The notes: a model not told the origin generated them from the sequence alone. Shown: positions 7,213 through 46,996, counted from the first letter of the stretch. The stretch is 53,415 nt of DNA from Candidatus Azambacteria bacterium RIFCSPLOWO2_01_FULL_44_84 (GCA_001774075.1 MEYR01000005.1:1-53415); one strand, 5' to 3'. Translations and numbers: made by a program.

Positions 7213-7238
7213 GAAGCGCCTCCTGTTTGTTACCGTTT

Positions 7239-8782: not shown

Positions 8783-10171
8783 ATGCCCTTAAAACTTTAC
8801 AACCACCTCACCAAAAAAATAGAAACTTTTAAGCCCATCAAATCAAAAATAGTGGGTCTTTATACTTGCGGGCCAACGGTTTATAACTTCGCTCACATCG
8901 GCAATCTGCGAACTTATGTTTTTGAAGATATTTTGCGTCGGACTCTTGAATACAACGGCTACAAAATAAACCATGTGATGAATATTACTGATGTGGAAGA
9001 TAAAATCATTCGCAACGCCGGCAAAGCCAAAAAAACAATTTTTGAGTTTGTTAAGCCGTATGAATCGGCTTTCTATAATGACCTGAAAAAACTCAATATC
9101 GAGCCTGCGACTGAATACCCAAAAGCAACCGCGCACATCAAAGAGATGGTTGCGATTATTAAAAAACTGCTTGATAAAAAACTCGCCTACAAAGCCGACG
9201 GCTCAATTTATTTTGATATCTCAAAATTCAAAAAATACGGCCGGCTTTCCGGCCTGAAATCGCGAGAGCTTAAAGTCGGCGCCCTAGGGCGTCCCGCCGG
9301 GCTAGCCCGCGTAGATGTAGACGAATACGCCAAAGGCGACGCCGAGGATTTTGTTTTGTGGAAAGCGGCAAAACCCGGCGAGCCGTCCTGGCCCGCGCCT
9401 TTCGGCGCGGGGCGGCCCGGCTGGCACATTGAGTGCTCGGCCATGTCAATGAAGTATTTGGGGCCGACTTTTGACATTCATGGCGGAGCGGTGGATTTGA
9501 TATTCCCCCATCATGAAAACGAAATCGCCCAGTCGGAAGGCGCTACTGGTAAACCATTCGTAAAATATTTTGTTGAGGGCGAACATCTTTTGGTTGACGG
9601 CGAAAAAATGTCCAAGTCGCTGGGCAATGTTTATACGCTCCGCGACATCGAGGCCAAAGGATTTAATCCGCTTGCTTTCCGATATTTGATTCTGACCGCT
9701 AATTACCGCTCAAAACTCAACTTTACATGGTCATCTCTTACTGCCGCGCAAAACGCGCTGGAGAATCTCCGCAAAGCGGTCTTGTCTTTCAAAAAACCCG
9801 CAAGACCATCGGACTCAAACCCGCGACTCGCCGGAGAACTGGAAAAGAAATTCACCGGCTTCGTAAACGACGATTTGGATACGCCAAAGGCGCTCGCTGT
9901 TTTATGGGAAGTTATAAAATCAGCCTGGCTTGATGGCGGGACGAAATATGGCCTGATAATGGATTTTGATAAAGTTTTGAGATTAAATTTATCAAAGATA
10001 AAAATTGAAAAAATAAAAACTACTAATGGGGTATCGAAACTAGTTGAAGAACGGGAAAAATACAGAAAAGAAAAAAATTTTGCCAAAGCTGACGAAGTCC
10101 GCAAGAAAATTGAAAAATTAGGATGGCTGATTGAAGACACTTCCGGAGGACCAAAATTAAAACGGAAATAA
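8783..10171 (+). CDS. cysS: cysteine--tRNA ligase
   Basis: HIGH-type AHIGNLRTY and KMSKS motifs. The ATG at 8783 is preferred over the TTG at 8771. Confidence 0.93.
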   Translation: MPLKLYNHLTKKIETFKPIKSKIVGLYTCGPTVYNFAHIGNLRTYVFEDILRRTLEYNGYKINHVMNITDVEDKIIRNAGKAKKTIFEFVKPYESAFYNDLKKLNIEPATEYPKATAHIKEMVAIIKKLLDKKLAYKADGSIYFDISKFKKYGRLSGLKSRELKVGALGRPAGLARVDVDEYAKGDAEDFVLWKAAKPGEPSWPAPFGAGRPGWHIECSAMSMKYLGPTFDIHGGAVDLIFPHHENEIAQSEGATGKPFVKYFVEGEHLLVDGEKMSKSLGNVYTLRDIEAKGFNPLAFRYLILTANYRSKLNFTWSSLTAAQNALENLRKAVLSFKKPARPSDSNPRLAGELEKKFTGFVNDDLDTPKALAVLWEVIKSAWLDGGTKYGLIMDFDKVLRLNLSKIKIEKIKTTNGVSKLVEEREKYRKEKNFAKADEVRKKIEKLGWLIEDTSGGPKLKRK

Positions 10172-10185
10172 ATAAAGCGCACGAA

Positions 10186-10317
10186 TTAATCTCGTGCGCC
10201 CTCTTCGACCAGATCGAACAAATAGTCGATCTCATCGCAGTCCTCAATTGTCAAATTGGACTGTTGCATCTTATCCAAAGCTGCGGCCAATTCCTCGTAG
10301 GAAAGCGCCTTTGGCAT
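10186..10317 (-). CDS. possible small acidic ORF (43 aa) overlapping the 3' end of the 109-aa ORF
   Basis: MPKALSYEELAAALDKMQQSNLTIEDCDEIDYLFDLVEEGARD. Its stop lies in the GCGCACGA/TCGTGCGC hairpin shared with the cysS end. It could instead be a frameshifted tail of 10271-10600. Confidence 0.3.
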   Translation of the reverse strand: MPKALSYEELAAALDKMQQSNLTIEDCDEIDYLFDLVEEGARD

Positions 10318-25800: not shown

Positions 25801-28800
25801 ATGCATAAGACGATCTTGCGGGAGGCCGTGAAGAAAAACCTCGTGAGTCGTGCCGTAGTCTGATTCAATATCCGACCACCTGAAGTAATTTTCGGAAACT
25901 CCGAACTTAACCAATCCAAGCGCCGGCTCATTTGTGTTCCATGTAACGCGTGCCGTAGTAGCATCCACCTGAACAGCTCTTATATTACTTATAGACGGTG
26001 GCACGCCATCAATTGAAGAAACGCCGGGATCAATTGTTTCCTGATAGCCCTTGGTTGATTCAACGCGGATAAAATATTTAAGCGCTCTTAAATCCTCCCC
26101 ACTTATTTCCGGTCGGGGAACTGCCCCGCCCATGCCTTGCTGGATATAAGTCGTAAGCTGGCCATCTGACATCGCTGCCATATCGTCAAAATTACTTACA
26201 TTACCCAAAAGACTCCAACCAGTTGGACCGTGGAGATTGTAGAACGAGGGACGAGAATCAAACGGAAAACTCAATACCGTCCCATACCTATACATTTCCC
26301 TTCCTTTACGATAAAGAGTTTCTTTTGCTCCACTTGGAATAAGAGGCGGATCTCCGGGGAGTAGTTTCCGATATGAAAATACTCCGGTACTGCCAAAACC
26401 GGTTGTGATGAAACGCGCTTCTTCGTCATCAAGCGCTAATGCCCATGTGTAATGGCCGAACCGACCGGCGGCTGTGCCATCAATCTGAAATGATCCTCTT
26501 GCCATTCGCTTTGAACGCGAACCATCCTTTGAAACGCGGAAAAGCGTATCAGTGCTTTCAGTGAAGGTCAGCCAAATATCATCCTTCGGACCCATCAATC
26601 CTTTTGTATCCACTTCCAACCATACCCAATCGCCCGGACCACCGCTTCCTATAGTACTGAAATCTATGATACGTTCCACTTGTTGCGTCCGCAGATTAAT
26701 CCTGCGAACCCAGTTCGTCCAATATTCAACGACAATGAGGTTGCCGTCGGAATCAAATCTGATCACTTGAGGATAATTTATTGTTGCCGTATCAAAATCG
26801 CCGTTTTGAGTAAAATTCTGGCGATTATTCCACAACGTCTGTTTATCCGGCACCTTCTGGGCTTTCGAACCATGTCCGACTAATGTCGTCACCATCCCGT
26901 CAGGATTGATTTTTCTAATAGCGCTATTCGTTTCATCAGCAACATACATCGTGCCGTCAGATGACATAACCAAGCTAAATGGCGCATTGAAAAGCGCCTG
27001 CAGACGCGGGCCGTCAACAAGGCCTTTTTGATTAGGCACTCCAGCATATGTCGTCACGAAAGCCGGGTTTTGGCGAGTATCCACCTTTGCGATACGATCA
27101 CGCCGGGTGTCAGCGACATAAATGATTTTGGGATCGCGCGGATCAAAAACAAGATCAATGGGAAGATCAAAATCAATTCCGCCGGAAAAATTTCCGACCA
27201 GTTCTGTCTGATAAGCTTTGACAGCCGATTCAGCCACAGAATAATAAGGATCATAGGGAAGCGTATCCCGCCTCACGCGCCTGCCCGCGATAGTGGTAAC
27301 GGTGCCATTGGGATCGATGCGGAAAAGGCGTCCGTACAAATCTATTCCCATCCAGCCGGGCCCATCGGGGATCGGCACAAAAGTTGAATAGGGACTTACG
27401 TTATTATCATTTCTCGGGCCGTCGAAATTGGGATAGCGATTACCGCGATCTCCGACAATTTCAGATGTCTTATCATTTTGCTGGTAGAATCCGCTGATAC
27501 GCAGATGCCCGTCGTTAATCCGGACAAAAAGTGGATTAGATTGATGAAGATCTGGCTGGGACCCCGTAAGCGCCTCTAAATACCAATTGCGCATATCAAG
27601 CAATGACTGCCTCTCGGAATCGTTGGCCGCAGGTGGAGAAAACTTATAAGGAAAAGGGTGTAGCGCTGAAGTATGCGGGAAAAATCCAGGGTAGGTCACC
27701 CAATCTAGGGCGGAAGAAAGATACTTCTCCGGACTAAAAACTTTCCACCAATCAGATGCCACCGGAAGGCGCTGACTCCCTGAAACCGCGCCTGCAACAT
27801 TATCTACTACCACACTGACTGTAAGTGTTCTGTAACGTGCATCAAGTTGCGGCCCGTCAATCAAGCGTACTCCAAAAGCATACATTCCATCCGCCACCTT
27901 CGTACTATCCCATGAAAATGAAAATGGACTTGAAAGATACGGACTGATCGGCTGGCCGTCTAAAAGATATTGAATAATCAAACCGGGAATGGCAGCGGAA
28001 TTATTCGTGCCTTTACGGGTGGCGAGTGATAGAGGAACCGCTGACCCCCGAACCACTGATGCGACTGATGGACGCAGATGATACGTATTTAAATCCGCAA
28101 CAGAAGTAAGGGAAAATTGCGGCGCGGCTGGCGGAGGTAGGGGTTGCGAATCAAGTACATCCACAATAACTGATTTTTCTGCTGAACCTCTGGCATTAAC
28201 ACAACGCAAAGTAAAGCTGGTGTTATCAGAAAGCACACCGGTATTCTCGCTTCCTGAAAAAGCTCTTGATCCGGTCCAACCGCCAAGGGCATTGCAAGAA
28301 TCTGCGCCCGATACAAACCAAGATAGCATGGAGGTTCCCTTGCCATCTATCGCAACTGGATCAGCTGAAAGTGAAACAACGGGCAAGGATTGTGGAGGCG
28401 GAGGTGGAGGCGGAGGATTTTGTGCCGTGACAGCTGATCGATAAATCCACGTTTTCATTGACCCGCCGCACGAAGCAGCCGAAATTCCACAATACAAACG
28501 CTCGGTCCGCAAATATACAAATGCATTTGTTTTTTCGTCATACACAAACGTACTTCGTTCTCCTCCCCCATTGGAACTAGAAAGAGGGGCTGAAGGAGCG
28601 GTAGGAAGCTTTACCCATTGGTCAGTATCCATGTTCCATGTCCAGACAGCGGCTTCACGCCCTGACGCCGGAGTCACCAAGAAAACCATTCTTTTATTCC
28701 GTGAATCATAATCAAACTCGCGGCTGTCACTCGCTGAAAGTTCTGCGGGCACAGAGGTTACTTCAGTCCAATCTCCCGTTGGTATTTTGACGCGATAAAA

Positions 28801-30744
28801 CTTCGAAGTTCCTTGTCCGTCGCTTGCTACGGTCTTTACAAAAATTTCTCTCCGATCTTTATTGTAAGCTCCAAAAAGATAACTTCTGATAATTTCCGGG
28901 GGATTTTTCTGAGCTTCCAGCCGCCAGGTATTCGTCCCGGCATCAAATGAATGAAGTCCTCTCTGCCCTCTTGTTGCTTCCCCCACAAGCGCGAAAATTT
29001 TATCAGCCTGCGGATCGAAAATAACCAACCCCTTATTAAGATACCACCCAGGACTTGCCGTAAGCCCCGCGAGAGCACTCCATGTCTTTGTATTCAAACT
29101 AAATGCCCATGTGCCTGATGCCGGGACGCAAGTAAAACGATTACGCCCTGCGTCATAGGCGCAATTCTGATACATGTGCTGATGATAAGGCCTGTTTTGC
29201 GGTGTTATTGTCGTTGCAGCTCCGCCGGATCCAACAATGCCGCGCGCTTCAGCAGAGCCGGGCAAAGGACACTCCGGCACATATTCCTCCTGCCATTGAT
29301 TCGCTTCGATAGTATAGAGATCAACATCATTGCCAATATGACTGGCATGCCCGCCTCCGAAATAAAATATCCTCCCATTGCCGGCAGTTATACCAGTGAA
29401 TGTACGGGTAACCGGTTCGCCTTGAGTAATTTTTCTCAAACAGTTAAAACGACTCACGTCGTTGACCGCAATAACATCGTTGATAGCGTTGTCAGTAATG
29501 AATGGTTGATATACATCGCGCGTTTTCGGGTTAGCATACATCCATGAATTTGGCGCGAGATTGTTTAATTGATTTATAAATGCGGCATCCAACGGCGGAT
29601 CTGGCAGCGGGAAAGAAGGAGAAGGTGGGAGTACCACTCCTTGAGTTGTTGCGGAGGATGATAATGATTGATTAGAAACATTTCCCGCGGCATCATAGGC
29701 GGCCACGGTGTAAAAATAAGCAGTTGCGGGCGAGAGACCGGTATTTTGAAATGAAGTTGTATTGGAAGTAGCGATTTGAGTGCCGCTCCGGTAGATACGA
29801 TAGCCGGTTACAGCGACGTTATCCGTCGACGCAGTCCACGAAAGATTTATTTGGGAAGAAGAAAAAACACTCGCAGTAAGATTCTGGGGAATAGATGGGG
29901 CTTGCGTGTCCGTAGATGGTGACGGCGGAGCTCCTGCGGCATTAAAAATTTCTGTTATTTCCACTACAGACAACGCGCGGTTGTAAACGCGGACTTCGTC
30001 AATCGAACCGTCGAAATAATCACCAAAAAATTGACCTACCAAAAAAGGAGAGCTGTTTGCTATTGACACTGACAGAGTATTAGTAATCACGGTTTTCGGC
30101 TGAGACATGCCGTCAATATAAACCGACACTCCCGAAGCATTCGAAGAGCCATCATAAATTACCGAAATATAGTGCCAATCAGTATTATTCGGACGAGGAA
30201 ATTGCACTTCTAAACGCCTGGAGTTGATGTCGCGCATTATAAATGACCATGGATCATTGGCCGCATCAGCTTCAATGGCTAGTTTATAGCCCGGAAGACT
30301 ACCTCCTGTATTTTCTTTAGCGATTAAACCCTGATCATCGCCTGCGCCGAATGAAGTTACATTAAATTTATACCACGCGCTTAAAGTAAAGGGATTAGTG
30401 TTTTCAAATCGTAAAGCGCTCGCGTTGCCCATATTCACATAATCATCACTCCCATCAAAACTTAACGCGCCATTAATTTTCCCCTGAGTCCAAGCAGGCC
30501 CGTTAAGAAGCGTTCCGTTATTCGCATTCCCGCTTGAATCAGCCGCGACTGTCCCGCTTCCTTCGTCAAATTTCCAATAACCGACTAACCCCGATCCAGT
30601 GCCGGTTAACGCCGCTGGATATTTATTCGAAACTGGTTTATTTTTTGGAAAACCGTTTATCTGGCTAAAAATAAAAATACCGGCGCCTAGCGCTAAAAAA
30701 GCAGAAAGTAAGATAACTTTTCGAGTTATTACTCGTTGAAGCAT
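22858..30744 (-). CDS. giant secreted/surface multidomain protein (2628 aa): LamG-FN3-beta-propeller-Ig-NHL-Ig-G8/beta-helix-FN3-LamG
   Basis: N-terminal signal/TM anchor. LamG-like jellyroll at both ends (YWKFDEGSG ... DEVRVYNRAL). Two FN3 domains (SSSQINLSWTASTDNVAVTGYRIYR). Poly-Pro linker. NHL-type repeats (IYVADTRRDRIAKVD, MYVADETNSAIRKINPDG). Ig-like (ITINAQASDNIGVLGVQFKLDG). G8-like (WSNAGTWKSGKVPTGNDKVII) followed by parallel beta-helix repeats. Confidence 0.85.
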   Translation of the reverse strand: MLQRVITRKVILLSAFLALGAGIFIFSQINGFPKNKPVSNKYPAALTGTGSGLVGYWKFDEGSGTVAADSSGNANNGTLLNGPAWTQGKINGALSFDGSDDYVNMGNASALRFENTNPFTLSAWYKFNVTSFGAGDDQGLIAKENTGGSLPGYKLAIEADAANDPWSFIMRDINSRRLEVQFPRPNNTDWHYISVIYDGSSNASGVSVYIDGMSQPKTVITNTLSVSIANSSPFLVGQFFGDYFDGSIDEVRVYNRALSVVEITEIFNAAGAPPSPSTDTQAPSIPQNLTASVFSSSQINLSWTASTDNVAVTGYRIYRSGTQIATSNTTSFQNTGLSPATAYFYTVAAYDAAGNVSNQSLSSSATTQGVVLPPSPSFPLPDPPLDAAFINQLNNLAPNSWMYANPKTRDVYQPFITDNAINDVIAVNDVSRFNCLRKITQGEPVTRTFTGITAGNGRIFYFGGGHASHIGNDVDLYTIEANQWQEEYVPECPLPGSAEARGIVGSGGAATTITPQNRPYHQHMYQNCAYDAGRNRFTCVPASGTWAFSLNTKTWSALAGLTASPGWYLNKGLVIFDPQADKIFALVGEATRGQRGLHSFDAGTNTWRLEAQKNPPEIIRSYLFGAYNKDRREIFVKTVASDGQGTSKFYRVKIPTGDWTEVTSVPAELSASDSREFDYDSRNKRMVFLVTPASGREAAVWTWNMDTDQWVKLPTAPSAPLSSSNGGGERSTFVYDEKTNAFVYLRTERLYCGISAASCGGSMKTWIYRSAVTAQNPPPPPPPPQSLPVVSLSADPVAIDGKGTSMLSWFVSGADSCNALGGWTGSRAFSGSENTGVLSDNTSFTLRCVNARGSAEKSVIVDVLDSQPLPPPAAPQFSLTSVADLNTYHLRPSVASVVRGSAVPLSLATRKGTNNSAAIPGLIIQYLLDGQPISPYLSSPFSFSWDSTKVADGMYAFGVRLIDGPQLDARYRTLTVSVVVDNVAGAVSGSQRLPVASDWWKVFSPEKYLSSALDWVTYPGFFPHTSALHPFPYKFSPPAANDSERQSLLDMRNWYLEALTGSQPDLHQSNPLFVRINDGHLRISGFYQQNDKTSEIVGDRGNRYPNFDGPRNDNNVSPYSTFVPIPDGPGWMGIDLYGRLFRIDPNGTVTTIAGRRVRRDTLPYDPYYSVAESAVKAYQTELVGNFSGGIDFDLPIDLVFDPRDPKIIYVADTRRDRIAKVDTRQNPAFVTTYAGVPNQKGLVDGPRLQALFNAPFSLVMSSDGTMYVADETNSAIRKINPDGMVTTLVGHGSKAQKVPDKQTLWNNRQNFTQNGDFDTATINYPQVIRFDSDGNLIVVEYWTNWVRRINLRTQQVERIIDFSTIGSGGPGDWVWLEVDTKGLMGPKDDIWLTFTESTDTLFRVSKDGSRSKRMARGSFQIDGTAAGRFGHYTWALALDDEEARFITTGFGSTGVFSYRKLLPGDPPLIPSGAKETLYRKGREMYRYGTVLSFPFDSRPSFYNLHGPTGWSLLGNVSNFDDMAAMSDGQLTTYIQQGMGGAVPRPEISGEDLRALKYFIRVESTKGYQETIDPGVSSIDGVPPSISNIRAVQVDATTARVTWNTNEPALGLVKFGVSENYFRWSDIESDYGTTHEVFLHGLPQDRLMHFAVLAKDIAGNNTVSLDGTFTMGSGAVFQDTVLPQVSLIAPAQDASVSGAITINAQASDNIGVLGVQFKLDGVLLGAEDTFAPYSVSWDTSKTTNGSHLISAVARDTAGNQKTASVSVTVANAPPSVIIEAIRTGAWSNAGTWKSGKVPTGNDKVIITGSGIVVTYDLPFDTQIGAEARAIIVKDGATLRMSRVLSTRLDLDGSLSILQGGKLDVGTSVDPIPSALKTYIGFNVANDRSFKGGAAAPSDPTFPDYQVDDTGLWVVGTTARADFFGGAIPKTWTKLVSDAPAGNSALSLRDAPQGWKVGDKIVITPTGKNSDETEVRTITAISGTRVTVNLPLAFLHEGNLKAYNKTTQAIRTIASESLIIAGEVLLRAQGEVGLLTHNVTIASNLVREGDTNHRSHVMYVHGAKGSIQYAEFRDLGPRATMGRYPIHLHELGDAGNGFLINGVSVWSSISDPMNKCITIHTSNGVTISNVVGFNAQGACFYLEDAKEQGNTLDGNLGVSVYAPEEISNGRAPSAFGYDSTSAAIFWVREKNTYRNNVAAGGRAGVAGFWQTPNVLASNALTLFTTNESHSNGIGLDYSGGSALTMTLDGIFIWNNLIGAHAASSISAVTKNSIFWNNQQDISGPQPGTFVANTIITPVALPGDTTAPSTPANLIATVFSSSQINLSWTASTDNVAVTGYRIYRGGTQITTVPGTSYSNTGLTANTAYSYTVAAVDAAGNVSALSPARNVTTLASQPSITVLLAHWKFDEGSGITASDSSGNGNTGTLTNDPLWVTGKSGKALQFDKVDDAVNINAPTAFDNLPQLTISAWINPKSAGEESFGRILEKADGVTYPITRGWNLFMTGNNQLSFIADFASTNLDKRSSAAVLTLNQWQHVALTWDGSSSASGVHFYVNGTEVAYTTNQSGSGTRVPDDTEDLRVGNNESGTRTFDGAIDEVRVYNRALAQSEIQSLYTYSTGAIDFKDANANR

Positions 30745-31709: not shown

Positions 31710-32090
31710 TTACTTTAATTCTACAGCAGCGCCAGCAGTTTCTAATTTTGCTTTCAATTCATCCGCCTCGGCTTTATTGGCGCCCGCTTTTATAACCTGT
31801 GGCGCCGCGTCAACCAACTGTTTGGCTTCCTGCAGACCCTTTCCGGTAACTTCTCGGACTACTTTAATAACCGCGATTTTTTGTTCGCCGGCCTTTGTCA
31901 AAACAACGTCAAAAGCTGATTTCTCTTCCTCCGGAGCAGCTGCGACAGCTCCCCCCGCCATCGGCATTGCCATCATCGGAGCGGAAGCCGAAACGCCAAA
32001 CTTCTCTTCAAGTGCTTTTACCAGTTCTGAAAGCTCGAGCACGTTTAATTTTTCCACCTCTTCAATTATTTTATCAAATTTATTGGACAT
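31710..32090 (-). CDS. rplL: 50S ribosomal protein L7/L12
   Basis: [33 protein letters not shown] ... KEAKQLVD...[11 protein letters not shown]. The start is set at the Met 7 codons inside the track ORF. Confidence 0.93.
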
Positions 32091-32125
32091 AATTTTATCG
32101 ATTTTGTACATTTGTAACCCATTAT

Positions 32126-32650
32126 TTACGACCTTTTTTCCTTCAAATTATTTAACAGATTAACTAAATTACGCATATTCCCAGACAGAACATTTACCAA
32201 ACCCGACAAAGGCGCGGCAATTGTTCCGACTACTTGCGCCAAAAGCGCCTCGCGCGGCGGCAACTGTGCAAGCGCTATAATCTGCGACTTTTCCTTAAAT
32301 TCAATTCCCAGAAAACCGCCCAAAATCTTCAATGCTTCGTTAAGCCGTGAAAATTTGTAGACCGATTGGGCCGCAGAGACCGGATCATTATAACTAAAGA
32401 CCAACCCTACCTGTGTTTTAAATTTTTCCGGATCGAAATCTTTATAATTCGCTTCTTTTAAAGCTCGGCTGATGAGTGTCTTTTTGGCGACTTTGTACTC
32501 GGCATCGGCCTGTTTTAAGTTGCGGCGCAGTTCCATGGTTTTGGATACTGGCAGTTTTGTGTAATCAACCAAAATGGCAGCTTTGGCTTTTTTAAGCTTT
32601 TCAACCAAATCCTGCAATATATCTTGTTTTTGTTCTCTAGTTAACGGCAT
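32126..32650 (-). CDS. rplJ: 50S ribosomal protein L10
   Basis: Position upstream of rplL, 174 aa, L10-like sequence [19 protein letters not shown]. Confidence 0.9.
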
Positions 32651-32660
32651 ATTTTTAAAT

Positions 32661-32683
32661 AAAAAAACGGACCAAGCGTCCGC
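32661..32683 (-). terminator. hairpin plus U-run immediately upstream of the rplJ start (candidate attenuator)
   Basis: Minus strand GCGGAC-gcttg-GTCCG-TTTTTTT lies 10 nt before the ATG. An upstream GTCCGC (plus 32760-32765) could pair with GCGGAC as an antiterminator. Confidence 0.45.
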
Positions 32684-32861
32684 ATAACAATAAACAGCTA
32701 AATTAAGCTATTTTTCCTTGGCGGGACTTACGCCATTTTCAGGCAGCTGCCCACTTTCTGCGGACTGTGTCCTCCGTAGCTTTAGCGCAGGAGGATTGTT
32801 TTGAGTATATTTTATATTAAAAAATTTGTCAAGAGTAAAAAATAAAGAGGCAAAAATGCCT

Positions 32862-33200
32862 CTACTTTAAAAGCCCCAGCCATTTCCAAAAACCGCCGGT
32901 CGCCAGCCAAACTAAAACCTTCCATGACAATACTGCAAAATTTACTGTCCAACAAATAAGTAGGATAAAGGGCCAAAAAAGACTGAATAAGCCATATAAG
33001 ATAAAATAATCCAACCAATTCTTGAGAGCGCCCTTTCCCGGTCTTCCTATGTAACCCATAAAATCAACTGTTTTATAAACAGAATTAGAAAGCGCCGTTT
33101 GGGAAGCCGTCGAGTCAAAAGAATACATGCAAAGGTAGCCGATATTCAGATAAACGACCGCTGCCGCAACCCATAAACAAACCTTCAGCCACTTCGGCAT
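32862..33200 (-). CDS. small membrane protein (112 aa)
   Basis: ORF with 3 hydrophobic helices and no motif. Confidence 0.5.
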   Translation of the reverse strand: MPKWLKVCLWVAAAVVYLNIGYLCMYSFDSTASQTALSNSVYKTVDFMGYIGRPGKGALKNWLDYFILYGLFSLFWPFILLICWTVNFAVLSWKVLVWLATGGFWKWLGLLK

Positions 33201-33264
33201 CTTTTTGCTCCCGTTTTCTTAAAGATCAAATTTATGAATAACATACAGTAGATGTATAAATATG

Positions 33265-34611
33265 TCAAGATGTCGATTTCAGTTCCCAAACCGCTTCTTT
33301 GAATTTTTTGCCCCTGTCCTTGGAATTTTGGAACATATCGAAGCTGGCGAAACCCGGAGAGAATAAAACCACGCCTCCTTCTTTTGACGCGATCGCCATC
33401 GCGTCTTTTATTATTTCTTTTATATTTTTTCCGCCACGGTAATAAACCGCCGACTTATGTTTTTTCAACTCCGGCCCCATTTTTTTGAAATGCCCGAAAA
33501 GTTCTTTTGAAGTCCGGCCGATAAGCATAATCGAAAGCGAATATGGCGACTTCAGCAGGTCTTTCGCGAATTCCTTAAGATCATAACCTTTATTAACTCC
33601 GCCGGTAATCAGGATGACGCTCCTGCTAAAAGCCCGCGCCGCGGCCAGAGTCGCGGCAGGCATTGTGGAGGCCGAATCATTATAAAAACGGATGCCGTTG
33701 ATTTCAGCTACGAATTCCAGATGATGTTCCAGGCCGGAGAAACTCTCGACGGCCTTATAAATGGTTTTAGCCGGAATTCCTAATATTTTCGCGACAGCAC
33801 ATGAGACGGCGATGTTTTCCTGATTGTGGACGCCGATCAAATGACGGCTCTTATGCAGATTGTCATCAATTTCAAAATATACCCGCCGAGCCCCGGACTT
33901 TTTCAGCAGATTATCCGGGTGGCGGCTATTTTTATTGACCACAAGCCAGCCGTCTTTTTTCTGATTCAAAAATATATTGGCCTTGGCGCCGTAATATTCC
34001 TTCAAGCTTTTGTGATAAATCGGATTTAACGGATCGGCCGGCGACAAGTGATCGGGGAAAAGATTGGTAACCACGGCGATATGAGGGCTACCCCTGAAAT
34101 CTAAAAGCTGGAAACTGGAAAGTTCTAAAATCACAAAGTGATCCGCCTTAATTTTCCCAATAAAGTCAAAAGGAGCAACACCGATGTTGCCGGCAAGCCA
34201 GACATTTTTCCCGGCTTTTTTCAAAATATGAAAAATAAGCGAGGAAGTCGTGCCCTTCCCTTTGGTGCCCGTCACGGCGATTATTTTTGCCGGACACAGA
34301 TCAAAAAACAATGCCATAGGCGACGTAAACACGGCGCTTTTTTTAAACTTTGTTTTCCCCGCGTCCATGAAGCCCGGGGTTCTGAATATGACATCAAAGT
34401 CCGCGATCCCTTGGAGATGATTATTACCGCCGCGGAAATCGACTCCCAGTTTCTCAATTTTTTCAAACCGCTCACCAAGCTCCGCCGCCGATCGCCTATC
34501 GAAAACCGTCGCTTTAATCCCCTTCTTAGCCAAATATTCGGCCAGTGAAAGATTTTCCAGACCCAGGCCCAAAAAGCAAATTCTTTTGTTTTTAAAATCT
34601 TTAAGATTCAT
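33265..34611 (-). CDS. murD: UDP-N-acetylmuramoylalanine--D-glutamate ligase
   Basis: N-terminal Rossmann FLGLGLENLSLAEYLAKKG and the Mur ligase P-loop VTGTKGKGTT. Confidence 0.85.
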   Translation of the reverse strand: MNLKDFKNKRICFLGLGLENLSLAEYLAKKGIKATVFDRRSAAELGERFEKIEKLGVDFRGGNNHLQGIADFDVIFRTPGFMDAGKTKFKKSAVFTSPMALFFDLCPAKIIAVTGTKGKGTTSSLIFHILKKAGKNVWLAGNIGVAPFDFIGKIKADHFVILELSSFQLLDFRGSPHIAVVTNLFPDHLSPADPLNPIYHKSLKEYYGAKANIFLNQKKDGWLVVNKNSRHPDNLLKKSGARRVYFEIDDNLHKSRHLIGVHNQENIAVSCAVAKILGIPAKTIYKAVESFSGLEHHLEFVAEINGIRFYNDSASTMPAATLAAARAFSRSVILITGGVNKGYDLKEFAKDLLKSPYSLSIMLIGRTSKELFGHFKKMGPELKKHKSAVYYRGGKNIKEIIKDAMAIASKEGGVVLFSPGFASFDMFQNSKDRGKKFKEAVWELKSTS

Positions 34612-35266
34612 CGGAAATTAGGGACACAAATAAAAATCCTTTATACTCTTTTTTGTCGAATTTATCACGGCTTCTTTTTATGTAAAGCCAAATACTGCCG
34701 CCAACCGGCGTAACAAGCCGGCCGCCGACTTTCAGCTCTTTTAGCCACGATTCCGGGACTGACGCGCCCGCGGCGGCAGCGATGATCCTGTCGTAAGGCG
34801 CGTGTTCCGCAAGGCCTTTGGTGGCATCTCCGCATATGACTTCCACAATGCCTTTTTTGATGAAATTATATTTAGCGATATTTGTGGTACCCCATTCAAA
34901 GAGCTCTTTTATTCTTTCCACGGCATATACTTTTCCTAAATTTTGATTTTTGATTTTTGATTTTTGAATTCCATTTTGACTTACAATGTAAGCCAAAATG
35001 GCTGTCTGCCAGCCGGAACCAAAACCAATCTCAAAAACCTTATTACCTGCCTCCGGTTGCAATAATTCAAGCATGAAAGCCACCGTGGTCGGTTGGGAAA
35101 TTGTCTGACCTTCGCCAATAGAGAGTGGCTCGTCAATATAAGCGAGCGCCTTTTCTCTCACAAAATTAGCGCGATCAACGCTTTTAAACGCCTCAATAAT
35201 TGACGGGGTCTTAAGAATGCCCCGTCTAATGATATCCTCGACAAACGGATTAATAGTTCTGCGCAT
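34601..35266 (-). CDS. pcm: protein-L-isoaspartate O-methyltransferase
   Basis: TISQPTTVAFMLELL, VFEIGFGSGWQTA and YDRIIAAAA...GGRLVTPVG motifs. Confidence 0.88.
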   Translation of the reverse strand: MRRTINPFVEDIIRRGILKTPSIIEAFKSVDRANFVREKALAYIDEPLSIGEGQTISQPTTVAFMLELLQPEAGNKVFEIGFGSGWQTAILAYIVSQNGIQKSKIKNQNLGKVYAVERIKELFEWGTTNIAKYNFIKKGIVEVICGDATKGLAEHAPYDRIIAAAAGASVPESWLKELKVGGRLVTPVGGSIWLYIKRSRDKFDKKEYKGFLFVSLISDES

Positions 35267-35309
35267 TAATTTAATAATATCAGCGGAATAAAAAAGGGCA
35301 ATTAGCCCC

Positions 35310-35792
35310 TTAATTTAACTTAAATCTCCTGATACGGATGCCGCCCCCGATCTCATCATTCAGGATCCGCCTTACGCGGGCCAGTTTTTCGGAACTACGC
35401 GCTTTGGTTTCTTCAGGAAGATCCCACTGCTTAAAAACTTCGACCATTTCAGTAAAATTACGCCGCCCTCCGAAAATCTCGTCAAAACACAACTTAAAAA
35501 TATTATAAATCAAGCCGTCCAGAATGCCATTTTCGTCGCACATCTTTCTCAAATGCCTGATTTGCTCTTCGGGAGTGCGATTGCCAAAAATAGTATGAAA
35601 ATAATTATGAGTCCTTATCGGAACTCTTATGACAATCCAATTACCTAAAAGTTTTGCTCGATACTTTCTGGGAATGCGCGAACGAGGATAAACATGATGT
35701 AAATTTGAGTGGCAATTTTGGTCGTGATTCTTGGGTTGACCCAAAACGTCCCTCTTTTTGTATAAAAAGAACCATAGTAATCCTAATAACAT
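35310..35792 (-). CDS. small HNH/His-Me-finger-like protein
   Basis: NLHHVYPRSR ... NWIVIRVPIRTHNYFH fits the HH..P.S ... N ... H..H pattern. The start is set at the ATG 7 nt after GGAGG. Confidence 0.5.
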   Translation of the reverse strand: MLLGLLWFFLYKKRDVLGQPKNHDQNCHSNLHHVYPRSRIPRKYRAKLLGNWIVIRVPIRTHNYFHTIFGNRTPEEQIRHLRKMCDENGILDGLIYNIFKLCFDEIFGGRRNFTEMVEVFKQWDLPEETKARSSEKLARVRRILNDEIGGGIRIRRFKLN

Positions 35793-35814
35793 AATTGAGC
35801 CTCCCATAGCAAGA

Positions 35815-35843
35815 ATAAAAAATAACCCGTTAATCGGGTTATT
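35815..35843 (-). terminator. rho-independent terminator after the 711-aa gene
   Basis: Minus strand AATAACCCG-atta-aCGGGTTATT-TTTTATT. Confidence 0.65.
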
Positions 35844-35861
35844 TTGAATTTTCTTTCTTGA

Positions 35862-35916
35862 CCCGTTAGAAGTCCGACAAGTCGGCAGACGCTGTCGGCG
35901 TCTTACTTCTAACGGG
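35862..35916. repeat. palindromic element CCCGTTAGAAG...CTTCTAACGGG, copy 3 (55 nt, inverted relative to copy 1)
   Basis: cccgttagaagtccgacaagtcggcagacgctgtcggcgtcttacttctaacggg. The TAG stop of the 711-aa gene lies in its right arm. Confidence 0.8.
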
Positions 35917-38044
35917 TCTCGCCGCCGTTGGCATCTCCGACGGACATATCAGGAAACACGTACTTCCTGTAAAAGCTGGCAATCGGCTCGGGCAGATCGA
36001 GCTCCTTAGTATAAGGAGCGTAATTGTAATACTTAGCACGCGCGCTAGTGATGCGATTCGCCGTATCAACGGTGTACTCCATAATCCACATGCCGATCCA
36101 AGGATGAAGCGCCTTGCGATCCATGTAATCCAAGGTTTGTTCCTGAAAGCAAGGTACGCAGATGACGGCAACGCCGGCGCTAAACTGCCAGTTGGCGACA
36201 TGCCAGTTGCCAAAAGCCAGAACGTGGCACATTTCTTTACCGCCGCGCGAAACAATACGCTGAATTTCGGCTTCAATGTGTTTTTGGCCTCCGTAAGTAA
36301 GCGCGTAGCCCGGCCCTCCGCCAGGGTGTTTGAGCGTAAACTTCATGCCATTGATCTCAACTGCGCCGCGGAGATGGCCAAGATACTTAATATCCGGCCG
36401 GGCGGCGGAAAAAATGCGCCGATAGAAGTTAGCTCCGACCTTACCAGCGAAAGAGTCATGATCTCCGCTGATGCTAAACTGCGGAAACGAAGCCTTCGGA
36501 TGGCGATCCGCCGCGTAAAGCATCTGGCCTTCAACGTTGGGAATAATCACCTTATTCTTGTTAGCCGGATGGTCGAACAGACCGGCGGTCATATCGCCGG
36601 TATCAAACATAACTGCGATCTTTTCCTCTTCAGCATTGCGGTAAGCCATGTCAACGCAAGAGGGCTGGCCGTCACCACTAGCATAATGCTTGTCGCTAGT
36701 GTAGCCAGTCTTAAGCTTCTTATGAAACACCGTCTTGAGATCAAGCGGCTTGAAGCTGGTTTTGGGACTCAAGACAAGAGTAAACTGCTTTGAATCAGCC
36801 TGCTCGGCATTGGAAGGGGTAAGAATCTTATAATTAGAGTCTTGCAGATTGCCAATAATCTCCCAAACCTTATCCTTATGGATTTTGAGATTCCGTGAAA
36901 GTTCACCTTCGGTCCGCGGTCGTTCACTTAGAAGCTCAACAACGGCGATCTGATTTTTCGTGAGCGATTCTTTGATCTTGACCTCTGCCAAGTAATCATC
37001 GGGCTGCTGATAATCGGTCAGATTGACGAGCTCAACCTCAATGCCGTTTTCCTTTAGGTGCCACTTGTCATCGAAATGCAAGTGCAAAATCACGCCACCG
37101 ATAATCGGAGCAAATCCCCGGCGCCGGCGCGACCTTTGATGAGGCGTCATCGCCTGCAGAGTAGGCGCAAGAAACCCGCGGGTAATCATATAAATTGGCA
37201 GGTCCGCGAACATGTGCGTTCCGAATAGCGCTAAAACCTTCTTATCGCTTTCGCCGCCCTTAAATTCCTCGCCGAAAGTGTTTTCCATAATCCGCTGAAG
37301 CGGCAAGCTCTTGGCATAAGGCGCGTAATCTTCGCCGGGATTGGTCGCCAAAATCCGAACATCTTTAATGAAAAACGACGCGGAAAGATCGCCACGGTAG
37401 ATAAGATCGTCACGAGAATCATCGCCGCAAATACCGCGCACAATATTATAAGCGGGATTTTCCTTATCTTTCGAAGAAAGGTCCCTCTTGCCGGAAATAA
37501 TATAGGTCTTAAAGCGGGCTTTGGGGAAATGTTTCAGAACATAATCCCGCTGCTGTTCTGGGGGTCCAAGAAATACTTCACCCTGGCGGCGCTTGGGCAT
37601 AATGCCGGCCGTCAGGTCGGAACCGACTGCAAAGTCAACTCCCGCCGCCTCGAAATAGGCATAAAGAGTATGCAGAGCCGTCCACTGGGCGAACTTACTG
37701 CCAGCGACTACACTTGACCAGAATCCAACCTTGTAAGTGTGCCTATAGATGGGATCTTTAATGACTCTTTTTTCCGGGTCAATGAGTAAAGGCTGAAGCG
37801 TAGTGGGATCTTTCTTAAGACCAACCTGCTTGGTTGCCCTGTCAAGATTAATGTCATACCCTTTGCGCATCAAAGCATCGACAAGGCGAACTGCCTCTTC
37901 TTCAGAGGTTTTTGGCTTGGTGCTGTCGGCAATGCCCGGAATGCTCCAAGCCTGCCTCTTAAGATATTTCAGAACTTCCGCTTCCCGCGCGGTTAACTTG
38001 TTGCTTAATTTGGCCTTTCCATTACCATTTTTCTTGGACGCCAT
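35909..38044 (-). CDS. 711-aa protein: N-terminal HTH, degenerate metallophosphoesterase-like domain, wHTH, second metallophosphoesterase-like domain with intact motifs
   Basis: Copy 2 motifs are SDKH (DxH, aa 450-453), TGDMTAG (GD, 482-488), SGDHD (GNHD-like, 526-530), KHPGG (572-576) and FGNWH (611-615). Copy 1 aligns (FAVGSDLTAG, IISGKRD, LFGTHMF) but lacks the DxH and GNH ligands. A wHTH lies at about aa 362-405. Confidence 0.6.
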   Translation of the reverse strand: MASKKNGNGKAKLSNKLTAREAEVLKYLKRQAWSIPGIADSTKPKTSEEEAVRLVDALMRKGYDINLDRATKQVGLKKDPTTLQPLLIDPEKRVIKDPIYRHTYKVGFWSSVVAGSKFAQWTALHTLYAYFEAAGVDFAVGSDLTAGIMPKRRQGEVFLGPPEQQRDYVLKHFPKARFKTYIISGKRDLSSKDKENPAYNIVRGICGDDSRDDLIYRGDLSASFFIKDVRILATNPGEDYAPYAKSLPLQRIMENTFGEEFKGGESDKKVLALFGTHMFADLPIYMITRGFLAPTLQAMTPHQRSRRRRGFAPIIGGVILHLHFDDKWHLKENGIEVELVNLTDYQQPDDYLAEVKIKESLTKNQIAVVELLSERPRTEGELSRNLKIHKDKVWEIIGNLQDSNYKILTPSNAEQADSKQFTLVLSPKTSFKPLDLKTVFHKKLKTGYTSDKHYASGDGQPSCVDMAYRNAEEEKIAVMFDTGDMTAGLFDHPANKNKVIIPNVEGQMLYAADRHPKASFPQFSISGDHDSFAGKVGANFYRRIFSAARPDIKYLGHLRGAVEINGMKFTLKHPGGGPGYALTYGGQKHIEAEIQRIVSRGGKEMCHVLAFGNWHVANWQFSAGVAVICVPCFQEQTLDYMDRKALHPWIGMWIMEYTVDTANRITSARAKYYNYAPYTKELDLPEPIASFYRKYVFPDMSVGDANGGETR

Positions 38045-38095
38045 TGTCAGCTCTCGTTTCGTTTTTTAAAATTTTAAAGATCGTGAAGTATTAGA

Positions 38096-38124
38096 AGTTT
38101 ATAAGTTAAATATATTTATGTCAA
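38096..38124 (-). promoter_or_regulatory. sigma70-like promoter for the 711-aa gene
   Basis: Minus strand TTGACA, 17 nt, TAAACT, about 50 nt upstream of the ATG. Confidence 0.4.
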
Positions 38125-38150
38125 TAAAAAATCCCGTCAAAAACGGGATT
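38125..38150 (-). terminator. rho-independent terminator after the guaB remnant
   Basis: Minus strand ATCCCGT-ttttg-ACGGGAT-TTTTTTATTG. Confidence 0.6.
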
Positions 38151-38436
38151 AAACTATTTCAATATCGTGAGGCTTGGATTCTTCCCGGGCAGCGCGGCTG
38201 ATTCTGGTGAATTTCCGGAAAAATGGCCTTTGGGGGTCCGAGATATCGGCAGCGCCGACATAAATCATGCCACTCCTCAGTCCGCTTACCAACTCGCTTA
38301 ATACTTGTTCTGTGGACCCGCGATAAGCCACGCGTCCCCTGATTCCTTCGGGTGCAATCTGATCCTTTACGCCTGAATTAAGAAATTTTTCGCCTCTTAA
38401 CTCAACATTCTGGACAGCAAGCGGAGCTGCAGCTAT
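38149..38436 (-). pseudogene. guaB: 3' remnant of IMP dehydrogenase (last ~85-95 codons only)
   Basis: The open frame reads ...QIAPEGIRGRVAYRGSTEQVLSELVSGLRSGMIYVGA...FTRISRAAREESKPHDIEIV. This matches the IMPDH C-terminus pattern (VPEGIEGRVAYKG ... GGLRS.MGY.G ... FVRIS.AG..ES..HDV). There is no ATG and no catalytic barrel upstream. Confidence 0.75.
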
Positions 38437-38447
38437 TTAATAATTTC

Positions 38448-39119
38448 CTACCGTAAGAAAAGTATTTTCGCTTTTGACCAGTTGAAAAAAATTAAACCTC
38501 CGATTAAGATTGAGCCAAAGGTGCCGGAAAACACATCCATTAAAGTATCCGCACCAGTAGATACCAGAGGGTCGCCAAACATCGCGAGATTAAACCGGGG
38601 ATAGCTTATATACTCAAAAAACTCCCACACTAACGCGATTATGACACCTCCCATAATCATCCACAAAAACGCTTGAAAACGGCTAATCGTAAAAATGGAA
38701 TTTTTCTCAAAATATAAAAAACCTAAAAAAATCAGAAACGCTAAAAGCGCGCCAAACATAAAATGCATTATCCAATCAAAATATGATATTTTGACATTAA
38801 GCCAGGTCGCGTCAAAAAATTCCATTAAAAAAAGTGCCGACGCTGAGGATTCGAGTGTTTTTAATGTGCGCAATGAAAAATAACGGTGAAAAGCGAGGTG
38901 GTTAAAAAATAAGCGTGGCGCAAAAAATAAGACAGGCGCTACGACCATATAATTAAACCCCCAACTGCCGCGCTCAATTAAAAAATAAAATACTCCAAGA
39001 GCTACGGATATAGAGATTAAAGCATTCACGCTTAATCTTAAAAACCCCTTTTTATATTTTTCGTATTCGCTTCCCATATAAACTCTATAATTATATAAAT
39101 AAAAATTAATAAATTGCAA
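38448..39119 (-). CDS. multi-pass membrane protein (223 aa)
   Basis: ORF with 6-7 hydrophobic helices and no motif. Confidence 0.55.
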   Translation of the reverse strand: MQFINFYLYNYRVYMGSEYEKYKKGFLRLSVNALISISVALGVFYFLIERGSWGFNYMVVAPVLFFAPRLFFNHLAFHRYFSLRTLKTLESSASALFLMEFFDATWLNVKISYFDWIMHFMFGALLAFLIFLGFLYFEKNSIFTISRFQAFLWMIMGGVIIALVWEFFEYISYPRFNLAMFGDPLVSTGADTLMDVFSGTFGSILIGGLIFFNWSKAKILFLR

Positions 39120-40799: not shown

Positions 40800-40888
40800 T
40801 GGTGCGCAGAGTGAGAGTCGAACTCACGGGGCCCATATAGAGCAACGGTTTTACAGACCGCTCCCGCCCCCTACGGGACTACCTGCGC
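40800..40888 (-). tRNA. tRNA-Tyr (anticodon GUA), long variable arm, CCA encoded
   Basis: Minus strand GCGCAGG...GCGGT-CTGTAAA-ACCGT...GTGAG-TTCGACT-CTCAC-TCTGCGC-ACCA. Confidence 0.8.
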
Positions 40889-40906
40889 AAATTTTTAAGA
40901 GACCTG

Positions 40907-40978
40907 AGCCGGAGAGAGGATTCGAACCCCCGACCTTCACTTTACAAAAGTGTTGCTCTACCACTGAGCTACTCCGGC
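40907..40978 (-). tRNA. tRNA-Thr (anticodon UGU)
   Basis: Minus strand GCCGGAG-TA-GCTC-AGTGGTA-GAGC-A-ACACT-TTTGTAA-AGTGA-AGGTC-GGGGG-TTCGAAT-CCTCT-CTCCGGC-T. Confidence 0.85.
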
Positions 40979-41019: not shown

Positions 41020-41502
41020 TTACAATATTTGTCTCTTTTTCAAGTAAATATTTCTCCAACTTCTTCCTTTGCCCCTATTCAGATTCCTAAAACTAGAAGT
41101 TAGCGCGTGGCAATTTGGACACAGTAGTCTTAAGTTATTTTCAGAATTATTATCGGCATTTCCGTCAATGTGATCAATCTCTAAAGGCACTCTATTAGTG
41201 TGCGCATTCTTCTGGTCCCAGCCGCATTGCAAACATTCTTCGCCGTTTTTTTCTACTAGAAATCTAAGCAGATGTCTTGATATATTTTTTGCATTAATGC
41301 CCCTATTCCCGTTCTCTTCACCCTTACGCCAAGCAGATATATATTGCTTATATTGATAATCAGTCTGGCAACGATTAGAGCAATATTTGCTGGCATACCT
41401 TTTCCTCGGCTTTTTGCATTCTATACATAGATTCATCAGTAAAGTATACCACATGTCAGCCAACAATCGGTATAAACAGACGGGGTGTTTTTTCTCTACC
41501 AT
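41020..41502 (-). CDS. free-standing HNH endonuclease with an N-terminal zinc ribbon
   Basis: CIECKK...CSNRC ribbon and HNH core CLQCGWD...LEIDHIDGNADNNSENNLRLLCPNCHA. The start may be the internal MNLCIEC. Confidence 0.8.
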   Translation of the reverse strand: MVEKKHPVCLYRLLADMWYTLLMNLCIECKKPRKRYASKYCSNRCQTDYQYKQYISAWRKGEENGNRGINAKNISRHLLRFLVEKNGEECLQCGWDQKNAHTNRVPLEIDHIDGNADNNSENNLRLLCPNCHALTSSFRNLNRGKGRSWRNIYLKKRQIL

Positions 41503-41989: not shown

Positions 41990-42103
41990 ACGCTTCGCTT
42001 AATAATCCGAATTATCATCCTAATATCCGAATATTCCGAATGGATTTTATGAGATTTATTCGGGTTATTCGGATAGAAATTCTAATCATTCGGATTATGA
42101 TAA
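41990..42103. repeat. ~115-bp CCGAAT/ATTCGG-rich dyad repeat, copy 1
   Basis: acgcttcgcttaataatccgaatt...atatccgaatattccgaatgg...ttattcggata...cattcggattatga is about 85% identical by eye to 46852-46970. Confidence 0.75.
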
Positions 42104-42106
42104 TAT

Positions 42107-42562
42107 TTATATCTCAAACCTGCAAAACTCTCCTATTTGGATATTCTCTCCCAACTTCCCTATATAATCGTTAACCACGTCTTCCACGGTTATATCCTGA
42201 TTCCGTATATACGGCTGAGATAATAATTCTTTTATGCTTTGGGGATTGGCAGCGGCAATATGCATAGCTAGTTCATGCCCCAATTGCTTGAATTGTTCGT
42301 TGCGGACCACAAAATCCGTTTCACAAAGCACCTTTACCAATACGCCTATCTTGCCGGTAGCATGAATATAAGAAGCAATAACGCCTTCGCCCGTTTGCCG
42401 CAGTGCTTTTTTGGCGGCAACCGCCACGCCACGCTTTTTAAGAAGTTCAAGAGCTTGTTCGATTTTCCCATCAGCTTCTTCCAAAGCCATTTTAATCGCG
42501 TCAACGGAAACACCCGTCATCTCACGAATTTTTTTCAAATCATTGATATTTATTTTGGACAT
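42107..42562 (-). CDS. tsf: elongation factor Ts, minimal form (151 aa)
   Basis: UBA-like IREMTGVSVDAIKMALEEADGKIEQALELLKKRG and core VKVLCETDFVVRNEQF; downstream of rpsB. Confidence 0.85.
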   Translation of the reverse strand: MSKININDLKKIREMTGVSVDAIKMALEEADGKIEQALELLKKRGVAVAAKKALRQTGEGVIASYIHATGKIGVLVKVLCETDFVVRNEQFKQLGHELAMHIAAANPQSIKELLSQPYIRNQDITVEDVVNDYIGKLGENIQIGEFCRFEI

Positions 42563-46851: not shown

Positions 46852-46970
46852 ACGCTTTCGCTTGATAATCCGAATTTATTATTCTAATATCCGAATATTC
46901 CGAATGAGTTTTATGAAATTTATTCGAGTTATTCGGATAATAAGTAATTCGGATTATTCGGATTATAATA
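46852..46970. repeat. ~115-bp CCGAAT/ATTCGG-rich dyad repeat, copy 2
   Basis: acgctttcgcttgataatccgaattt...atatccgaatattccgaatga...ttattcggataa...attcggattattcggattat. Confidence 0.75.
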
Positions 46971-46996
46971 AAATAAAAATCTAAATTAGTCAACTT

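Follow-up and report, generated by a model that had tools for sequence, protein, structure and literature searches.

Phosphoesterase domains of the DP1 type count as a hallmark of the archaeal family-D DNA polymerase (PolD) and of the B-subunits of eukaryotic polymerases. The nucleases Mre11 and SbcD have the metallophosphoesterase (MPE) fold and work as dimers on DNA ends; enzymes of the YfcE/MJ0936 type act on small substrates and have no winged helix-turn-helix (wHTH) domains. The eukaryotic B-subunits are inactive derivatives of DP1 that play an architectural role (PMC4104785), and a phage MPE structurally like DP1 and Mre11, gp47 of mycobacteriophage Bxb1, is needed for replication and is a weak exonuclease (PMC11795197). 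Here, we describe gene X, an open reading frame (ORF) of 711 amino acids (aa) whose product joins two winged helices with two MPE domains. It lies on a stretch of 53,415 nucleotides, called the window throughout, from Candidatus Azambacteria bacterium RIFCSPLOWO2_01_FULL_44_84 (GCA_001774075.1, MEYR01000005.1:1-53415).

How does X compare with these systems? DP1, the 3'-5' proofreading exonuclease of PolD (5IHE, 6HMS, 8PPT), is the best match of the X family in both structure and sequence, and the two share motif I (SDxHxGS), motif II (GDxxDGxGxY), GNHD and GHxH, followed by QxQT. Unlike DP1, X is a tandem duplication with one dead copy, and by model and profiles no oligonucleotide/oligosaccharide-binding (OB) fold stands N-terminal to its phosphodiesterase (PDE) domain: each MPE domain is preceded instead by a wHTH of three helices and a wing. 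The best score of the family with the NCBIfam DP1 model is at most ~67 bits against 445, over model positions ~220-320 only, so that the DP1 equivalog cut-offs (425-993) are not reached; no gene resembling the partner subunit DP2 lies within the window; and the hosts of the family are bacteria of the candidate phyla radiation (CPR), Thermoproteota-like archaea and viruses, not PolD-bearing archaea.

With the eukaryotic B-subunits (Pol alpha p70, Pol delta p50 and Pol epsilon p59), X has in common a domain that is catalytically dead and nevertheless retained, its module 1. Unlike them, X carries its dead copy in one chain with a live paralogue and has no OB fold, the likeness being at the level of the MPE fold. 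Mre11 and SbcD are second-tier matches of the family in Foldseek and profile searches, and phrog_100 ("SbcD-like") is matched as well; however, their E-values fall short of those of DP1 by nine orders of magnitude, X has neither a capping domain nor a Rad50/SbcC partner nearby, and an intramolecular duplication takes the place of their dimerization. Bxb1 gp47, a recombination directionality factor and replication MPE, has its analogues in the viral relatives of X that consist of a single module, but by tblastn it is no detectable sequence relative of the family and, by its published description, has no wHTH module (PMC11795197). Finally, some members of the family match the compact MPE models of the YfcE/MJ0936 type (Metallophos_2, PF12850, and TIGR00040), although these matches are weaker and fewer than those to DP1. 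Our literature search found no described DP1-like wHTH-MPE family from CPR bacteria or phages.

Two winged-helix phosphoesterase modules in one polypeptide

The internal duplication in X covers the entire wHTH-MPE unit. With half-profiles cut from a 20-sequence family alignment, hhalign matched the N-terminal MPE half to the C-terminal one over 223 columns at 24% identity (probability 99.9%, E 6.7e-35), and the N-terminal HTH to the central wHTH (96.4%, E 1.3e-9). Since both the HTHs and the MPE halves match, it was the whole module that was duplicated. This is a larger duplication than the one claimed in an earlier note on this DNA, which had read the ORF as a metallophosphoesterase duplicated internally and equipped with two winged helices, one catalytic set being dead and the other live. 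That description is well supported: the ORF is present, every peptide string quoted from it is found in the sequence, and the proposed pairings of peptides between the halves were reproduced exactly by hhalign.

An AlphaFold2 (AF2) model of X was built on the family alignment, with a predicted local distance difference test score (pLDDT) of 81 and a predicted template-modelling score (pTM) of 0.80. It passes twice through the same succession, i.e., helix-helix-helix-wing and then an MPE sandwich. In the N-terminal wHTH, the helices span residues 19-30, 35-41 and 48-60 and the strands 64-68 and 73-79; the helices of the central one span 363-374, 379-386 and 390-402. The high pTM suggests that the modules have a defined mutual arrangement, and they may pack as a pseudo-dimer. 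The homologues agree with both winged helices of the model. At the position of the N-terminal wHTH, the homologues P0043 and P0011 have Pfam matches to HTH_11, TrmB and MarR_2 (homologous proteins carry P-numbers here, and contig loci of relatives L-numbers). For the central wHTH, family profiles match AdcR/MarR wHTH structures (E 0.0016 and 2.3e-5), and homologues match HTH_24 (E 2.9e-8) and HTH_5 in Pfam.

Both fold and profile place the family in the MPE superfamily. In Foldseek, X matches many MPE structures with a probability of 1.00; about the fold, the earlier note was right. Matches of homologues to Metallophos (PF00149) score 35-47 bits against a gathering score of 21.5, and those above the gathering score fall in module 2, with HTH families placed before each module. 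X adds a new variant of architecture to this known superfamily.

The two modules differ in their catalytic residues. The five-motif set of MPE enzymes (DxH, GD, GNH[DE], H and GHxH) is found in the C-terminal module and not in the N-terminal one. In the C-terminal half, the ligands, which across the family are either constant or exchanged conservatively, are D451-x-H453, G483-D484, G527-D-H529-D530, H573 and G612-N-W-H615, which supply the residues of a binuclear metal site (D451, H453, D484, D528/H529, H573, N613 and H615); at the same positions the N-terminal half has S/V, S-D, G-K-R-D, N and G-T-H-M. The motif alignment confirms that only the C-terminal half has kept the calcineurin-like ligand set.

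This asymmetry, with copy 2 intact and copy 1 degraded, holds across the family. All modules of 90 two-module and 79 single-module representatives were aligned to a hidden Markov model of the C-terminal half. At least 86% of the two-module representatives have DxH, GD, G[N/S/D]HD, H and G[N/H]xH in module 2; in module 1, the His of motif I is kept in 9 of the 90 and that of motif III in 4. The single-module representatives keep the canonical ligand set, GHxH included. Module 1 is nonetheless a conserved pseudoenzyme and not a decaying sequence: about 26 columns are invariant in alignment A1, which covers the clade of the window, and they argue for purifying selection. Module 1 also has a basic loop, TPHQRSRRRRG in X and TPxQ[KR]x[KR]R[KR]RG in alignment A1.

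Affinity to DP1 and spread of the family

Three independent lines of evidence indicate that PolD DP1 is the closest known relative of the MPE domain in this family. When the model of X was compared with the PDB in Foldseek, ranks 1-10 were all DP1 (E 6e-10 to 6e-8), followed by purple acid phosphatase, Mre11 and LpxH at ~1e-6. When A3, a profile of 80 members of the family, was searched against the PDB, DP1 (5ihe, chain A) came at E 2.5e-14, Mre11 at 2.3e-5 and MJ0936 at 8e-5. The alignment of A3 with DP1 shares SDxHxGS, GDxxDGxGxYxG, GNHD and GHxHv...QxQT, and module 2 of X itself has a DP1-like "PCFQxQT" segment. The NCBIfam DP1 model NF003118 was matched by 60 of the 80 members (best E 5.9e-20), YfcE by 18 and SbcD by 6. 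The signature of a DP1-type PDE domain is therefore present at the level of the family; for the profile of the window's clade, A1, the sequence signal to DP1 is marginal (E 0.037). Viral collections give a similar picture: the best PHROG of the family is phrog_7339, "DNA repair exonuclease" (E 1e-21), and matches in BFVD, which holds viral structure predictions, reach E 8e-19, with several labelled DNA polymerase II small subunit.

The family is sizeable. When 1.84 billion representatives were searched exhaustively by profile, 2,687 clusters (50% identity) reached E<=1e-3 and 647 reached E<=1e-30. Proteins with two modules (650-880 aa) and with a single module (300-440 aa) are both among them. 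Homologues of X also occur in metagenome-assembled genomes labelled Yanofskybacteria and Saccharibacteria. A peptide-pattern scan of genome contigs returned only 4 loci; it is limited by its patterns and gives no guide to prevalence.

Archaea and viruses contribute as well. Three archaeal homologues (P0031-33), in a tier of 28% identity, have L31e, eIF6 and ThermoDBP as neighbours. They share the architecture with a dead N-terminal and a live C-terminal module, so that the duplication predates a transfer between domains. On one such contig, L017 (L31e, eIF6, ThermoDBP), the two-module homologue (6306-8423, 28% identity) is accompanied on the opposite strand by a separate 249-aa Metallophos gene (9564-10313), and by a 359-aa gene of unknown function.

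The single-module relatives examined (three cases) are all on viral or virus-like contigs. One has genes for a ParB-like nuclease, a Cas4-like nuclease and nucleotide metabolism as neighbours (L014), and another shares its contig with an endolysin (L019). The third (L023) is ORF43 of the Halorubrum tailed virus BLv36 (OQ850970.1, 5701-6861), annotated as hypothetical, which lies between the portal and minor-head genes and the gene of the major head protein. This is an odd place for a nuclease-like gene, and the portal and head genes give no clue to its function. A tblastn search of 50,697 phage genomes found no match for X, and BLv36 ORF43 alone for the single-module protein P0096.

Proposed role and competing readings

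What might such a protein do? On balance, we lean towards reading X as a metal-dependent nuclease that binds DNA and joins a live DP1-like module covalently to a dead paralogue, the latter acting as scaffold or DNA clamp. The ancestral unit would have been a single wHTH-MPE module of ~300-440 aa, and tandem duplication and fusion of this whole module would have given X. The C-terminal module, with its complete binuclear metal site, would be the catalytic centre. The N-terminal module, having lost its ligands, would act as the architectural, nucleic-acid-binding partner in a covalent pseudo-dimer, a part that would parallel that of the eukaryotic B-subunits, themselves inactivated derivatives of DP1. 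These subunits and gp47 of Bxb1 are the two precedents that favour such a reading. DNA may be gripped by the wHTHs together with the dead module's basic loop, and the live module may cut phosphodiester bonds at DNA ends as an exo- or endonuclease of the Mn2+/Fe type, in replication or repair.

Several observations weigh against this reading. The MPE fold also serves chemistry other than that of nucleases, as in cyclic-nucleotide, lipid and protein phosphatases; the substrate of X may be of another kind. By itself, the sequence of X has no significant match in Pfam, NCBIfam, PHROGs or the PDB, and for this reason its assignment rests on the family profile and the predicted structure. The clade of the window has Asp in place of Asn in motif III and Asn in place of the first His in motif V, and these substitutions could alter metal binding. 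With no OB fold, scores below the cut-offs and no DP2 in sight, X is not an orthologue of DP1. At the loci compared, no conserved neighbour with an obvious role in DNA repair or replication was found, and the viral contexts are heterogeneous, extending to the head module of BLv36, so that they indicate no single pathway.

The main rival, which we consider possible though unlikely, is regulation through the wHTHs coupled to a phosphodiesterase for small molecules: X would be mainly a transcription regulator or sensor, with the wHTHs binding operators, the live MPE hydrolysing a signalling nucleotide and the dead module sensing a ligand. The two winged helices, of MarR/ArsR/TrmB/HTH_11 type, would suit this role, as would the conserved, ligand-less pocket of module 1, which could bind an effector; phosphodiesterase models of the YfcE/MJ0936 type are matched by the 18 members of the 80 mentioned above, and homologues carry the JGI name "biotin operon repressor/predicted phosphodiesterase". 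However, the affinity of sequence and fold is clearly stronger to the DP1, Mre11 and SbcD nucleases than to small-molecule phosphodiesterases, and the viral single-module relatives match the PHROG "DNA repair exonuclease". Moreover, the neighbours vary from clade to clade, and hence no conserved target operon stands out.

Another reading concerns the small gene that follows X. It most likely starts at a TTG (35744) and not at the upstream ATG (35807), because all homologues begin there. Its 69 homologues from a profile search measure 109-160 aa and have no Pfam domain; the two that carry organism names come from the Parcubacteria group and Paceibacterota, and the protein appears to belong to a family specific to Parcubacteria. 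The earlier note had called its product HNH-like. An invariant motif, H-x-N-x-HHVYP[RK]SR ... HNxFHxIFGN, does run through the family, and its residues H33, N35, H37, H38, H67, H71 and N76 resemble the pattern HH..P.S...N...H, with no Cys ligands for Zn and without statistical support. No HNH family was found in Pfam at E<=10 in any of nine members, a PDB profile search returned nothing relevant, and hhalign gave a probability of 0.2% against a bona fide HNH protein of the window (41020-41502). Apart from the residue pattern, nothing supports an HNH identity. Weak matches to the DnaB_2/DnaD domain (PF07261) in seven of the nine members (best E 0.0025) are a lead only, and the AF2 model of the small protein (pLDDT 49) was unusable for a fold search. 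The HNH endonuclease at 41020-41502 (minus strand; PF01844, 25.7 bits, above the cut-off) has a Cys-rich N-terminal region, shows no relationship to the small protein and is found a short way downstream of the genes for tRNA-Thr and tRNA-Tyr (40800-40978).

Wherever a locus has the small gene and reaches far enough upstream, this gene directly follows the one in the X slot, as in the window, L007, L009, L020 and L022. In three of these the slot, which is bounded by IMPDH and the small gene, is occupied by a large protein of 703-877 aa (L007, 5764-7875; L020, 4249-6855; L022, 4272-6905) with no BLAST similarity to X, next to small proteins that are 41-58% identical to that of the window. The slot proteins show collinear, weak hhalign similarity to X (E 7e-5 and 1e-3) and weak Pfam hints of HTH_11 and Metallophos, consistent with the same architecture. 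Given this similarity and these hints, the idea that they are unrelated to X was set aside and they are treated as extremely divergent homologues, a tentative assignment. The difference at the slot may reflect either very fast evolution of the large gene or its replacement in place by a distant homologue.

Could X and the small protein form a two-component DNA-processing unit, the small protein giving a second, His-Me-like active site or a DnaD-like function in DNA binding or remodelling? We regard this as rather improbable. The two genes stay adjacent even when the large protein has diverged past detection by BLAST, and the invariant His and Asn residues and the DnaB_2/DnaD matches would fit such a role. 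Since the gene has been kept beside the X slot in the wider clade of the window, the two may be functionally linked. Yet adjacency is weak evidence in a block that is syntenic throughout, a terminator-like hairpin stands between the two genes, X homologues of other CPR clades and of archaea do without the small gene, which is absent within 6-8 kb on either side of X in the homologues of 34-47% identity, and no fold assignment of the small protein has statistical support.

Bolder still, and doubtful in our view, is the proposal that the wHTH-MPE family is a bacterial and viral sister of the DP1 exonuclease domain, with the fused form serving as a replication or repair exonuclease in Parcubacteria and in some archaea that lack PolD. 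If it were true, the passage from an active DP1 to an inactive, architectural B-subunit would have been run a second time, independently and within one polypeptide, and X could partner the replisome, for instance in proofreading or in the processing of ends.

A conserved chromosomal setting

The features of the locus are collected in Table 1. On the minus strand, the order of transcription is guaB remnant, X, small gene, PCMT, MurD, the 112-aa membrane protein, rplJ and rplL. A promoter candidate lies ~50 nt upstream of the ATG of X, and a terminator-like hairpin (38150-38130) follows the guaB remnant. The promoter-like site, the palindrome and terminator at the end of X, and the decayed guaB had all been described in the earlier note and are indeed there. 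A scan of 35000-38600 with Rfam gave only chance matches below threshold.

Table 1. Coordinates of gene X, its parts and its neighbours in the window
Feature	Position	Strand	Description or basis
Downstream housekeeping context	31710..35266	-	Pfam
rplL	31710-32111	-	Pfam
rplJ	32126-32650	-	Pfam
112-aa membrane protein	between MurD and rplJ	-	
MurD	33265-34611	-	Pfam
PCMT	34601-35266	-	Pfam
Terminator-like hairpin after small gene	35293..35311	-	hairpin prediction
Small gene	35310..35744	-	144 aa from TTG 35744 (ORF of 165 aa, 35310-35807, open to ATG 35807); homologue alignment
Intrinsic-terminator-like hairpin and T-run after X	35819..35845	-	11-pair stem, loop of 5, T-tail
Palindromic repeat element, copy 3	35863..35915	.	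CCCGTTAGAAG...CTTCTAACGGG, 53 nt; overlaps TAG stop of X
Gene X	35909..38044	-	711-aa ORF; wHTH - dead MPE - wHTH - live MPE, DP1-like metallophosphoesterase family
MPE module 2 of X (aa ~435-680)	36005..36742	-	intact binuclear-metal site; motif and DP1 alignments
Central winged helix of X (aa ~355-430)	36755..36982	-	MarR/ArsR/TrmB-like; family profiles, model
MPE module 1 of X (aa ~96-345)	37010..37759	-	catalytically degraded; motif alignment, hhalign
N-terminal wHTH of X (aa ~15-90)	37775..38002	-	model helices and homology to central wHTH
Promoter candidate, TTGACA-17-TAAACT	38096..38124	-	sigma-70-like, 10/12 consensus positions; consensus match only
guaB (IMPDH) remnant	38149..38400	-	C-terminal ~84 codons only; Pfam IMPDH E 1.4e-9, profile 294-345 of 345

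The block guaB - X - small gene - PCMT - (MurD) - ~110-aa gene - rplJ - rplL recurs in contigs of related Parcubacteria, and the downstream order PCMT...rplJ-rplL is also seen in L007, L008, L020, L022, L004 and L016. Homologues of X at 34-72% identity occupy the same place on the chromosome, in housekeeping surroundings with rplJ-rplL a few genes downstream, and many adjoin IMPDH, PCMT or YceG. For instance, L016 reads IMPDH - phosphoribosyltransferase - orotidine monophosphate decarboxylase - X - ClpB-like - PCMT - ... - YceG - rplJ - rplL; L004 reads X - ClpB-like - PCMT/YceG - 106 aa - rplJ - rplL; L001 reads rpmG - X - ... - YceG - rplJ - rplL; and L009 has X followed by the small gene. 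No HNH-like neighbour of the X homologue was found in L001, L003, L004 or L016. Core, syntenic homologues without such a neighbour are largely what is seen at 34-72% identity, and these were what the earlier note itself had named as counting against its view.

That view was of a GC-rich islet, and composition does not bear it out. X has a GC content of 0.500 and a GC content at third codon positions (GC3) of 0.558, against means of 0.443+-0.043 and 0.461+-0.061 for the genes of the window, i.e., +1.3 and +1.6 standard deviations (sd). Several other genes of the window, housekeeping ones included, match X in GC, and the small gene is at 0.414. Neither protein has a match in PADLOC-DB v2 at E<=1, no integrase or transposase adjoins X, and nothing marks the locus as a genomic island. 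X is a fixed, vertically maintained chromosomal gene of Parcubacteria/Paceibacterota within the CPR, a lineage read from the source names of homologues of X and of the small protein, and not part of a defence island. We therefore hold it very improbable, and largely refuted by synteny, that a horizontally acquired two-gene module for defence or mobile-element maintenance (a pseudo-dimeric nuclease/phosphatase with an HNH nuclease) is at work here: X does have its own promoter-like site and terminator, a dispersed palindrome beside it, GC at the high end of the window, viral single-module relatives and, in part of the lineage, a conserved neighbour with H-N-H-like residues, but the order IMPDH - X - small gene - PCMT - ... 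- rplJ - rplL persists in several divergent relatives without variable flanks, no HNH profile is matched, and relatives at 34-47% identity have no small gene.

The palindromic element merits a word of its own. It has a GC-rich centre and occurs three times in the window, with further copies at 6152-6204 and 6783-6846; copy 3 provides the stop codon of X. In the contig of the closest relative, it is found once at a different position, before rplJ (L008, 3895-3958). This suggests a lineage-specific hairpin repeat of the repetitive extragenic palindromic (REP) or miniature inverted-repeat transposable element (MITE) kind. One palindrome lies within the 3' end of a 147-aa ORF that resembles cytidine/deoxycytidylate deaminases (6769-7212, minus strand; PF00383, E 2.2e-6), and another ~560 nt downstream. 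With a GC of 0.60, ~+3.7 sd, this ORF is the real compositional outlier of the window and a better candidate for an islet than the X locus.

Other features of the window can be noted briefly. The guaB remnant, still open in frame, is 61-63% identical to the C-termini of IMPDH in relatives. L020 and L016 have a full-length IMPDH at its position. In L022, of a different Parcubacteria lineage, a similar 84-aa tail stands at the same place (3911-4165), so that the same ~84-codon tail has been retained in two lineages for no apparent reason. The one giant ORF of the window (22858-30744, minus strand; 2,628 aa) has Laminin_G_3 (LamG), CEMIP beta-helix, Big_7, fn3, Kelch and toxin receptor-binding-like domains. 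Its product presumably sits on the cell surface or serves in adhesion, a type of protein often met in CPR bacteria. Two intergenic direct repeats of ~105 nt (42012-42117 and 46876-46985; families D8 and D13), "...AATATCCGAATATTCCGAATG...", are 77-91% identical and 4.86 kb apart.

What had looked like an islet is ordinary core genome and not a defence locus. For the biology of CPR bacteria, X is a conserved, unannotated candidate for a DNA-processing enzyme beside the ribosomal rplJL operon. Beyond this lineage, it represents a sizeable uncharacterised family that combines a DP1-like catalytic domain with winged helices in CPR bacteria, in archaea with neighbours of crenarchaeal type (ThermoDBP) and in viruses, and that bears on the origin of the DP1 exonuclease. 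The family also offers a natural series for the evolution of pseudoenzyme partners: from a single live module, to a duplicated one, to a pair in which one module is dead and the other alive.

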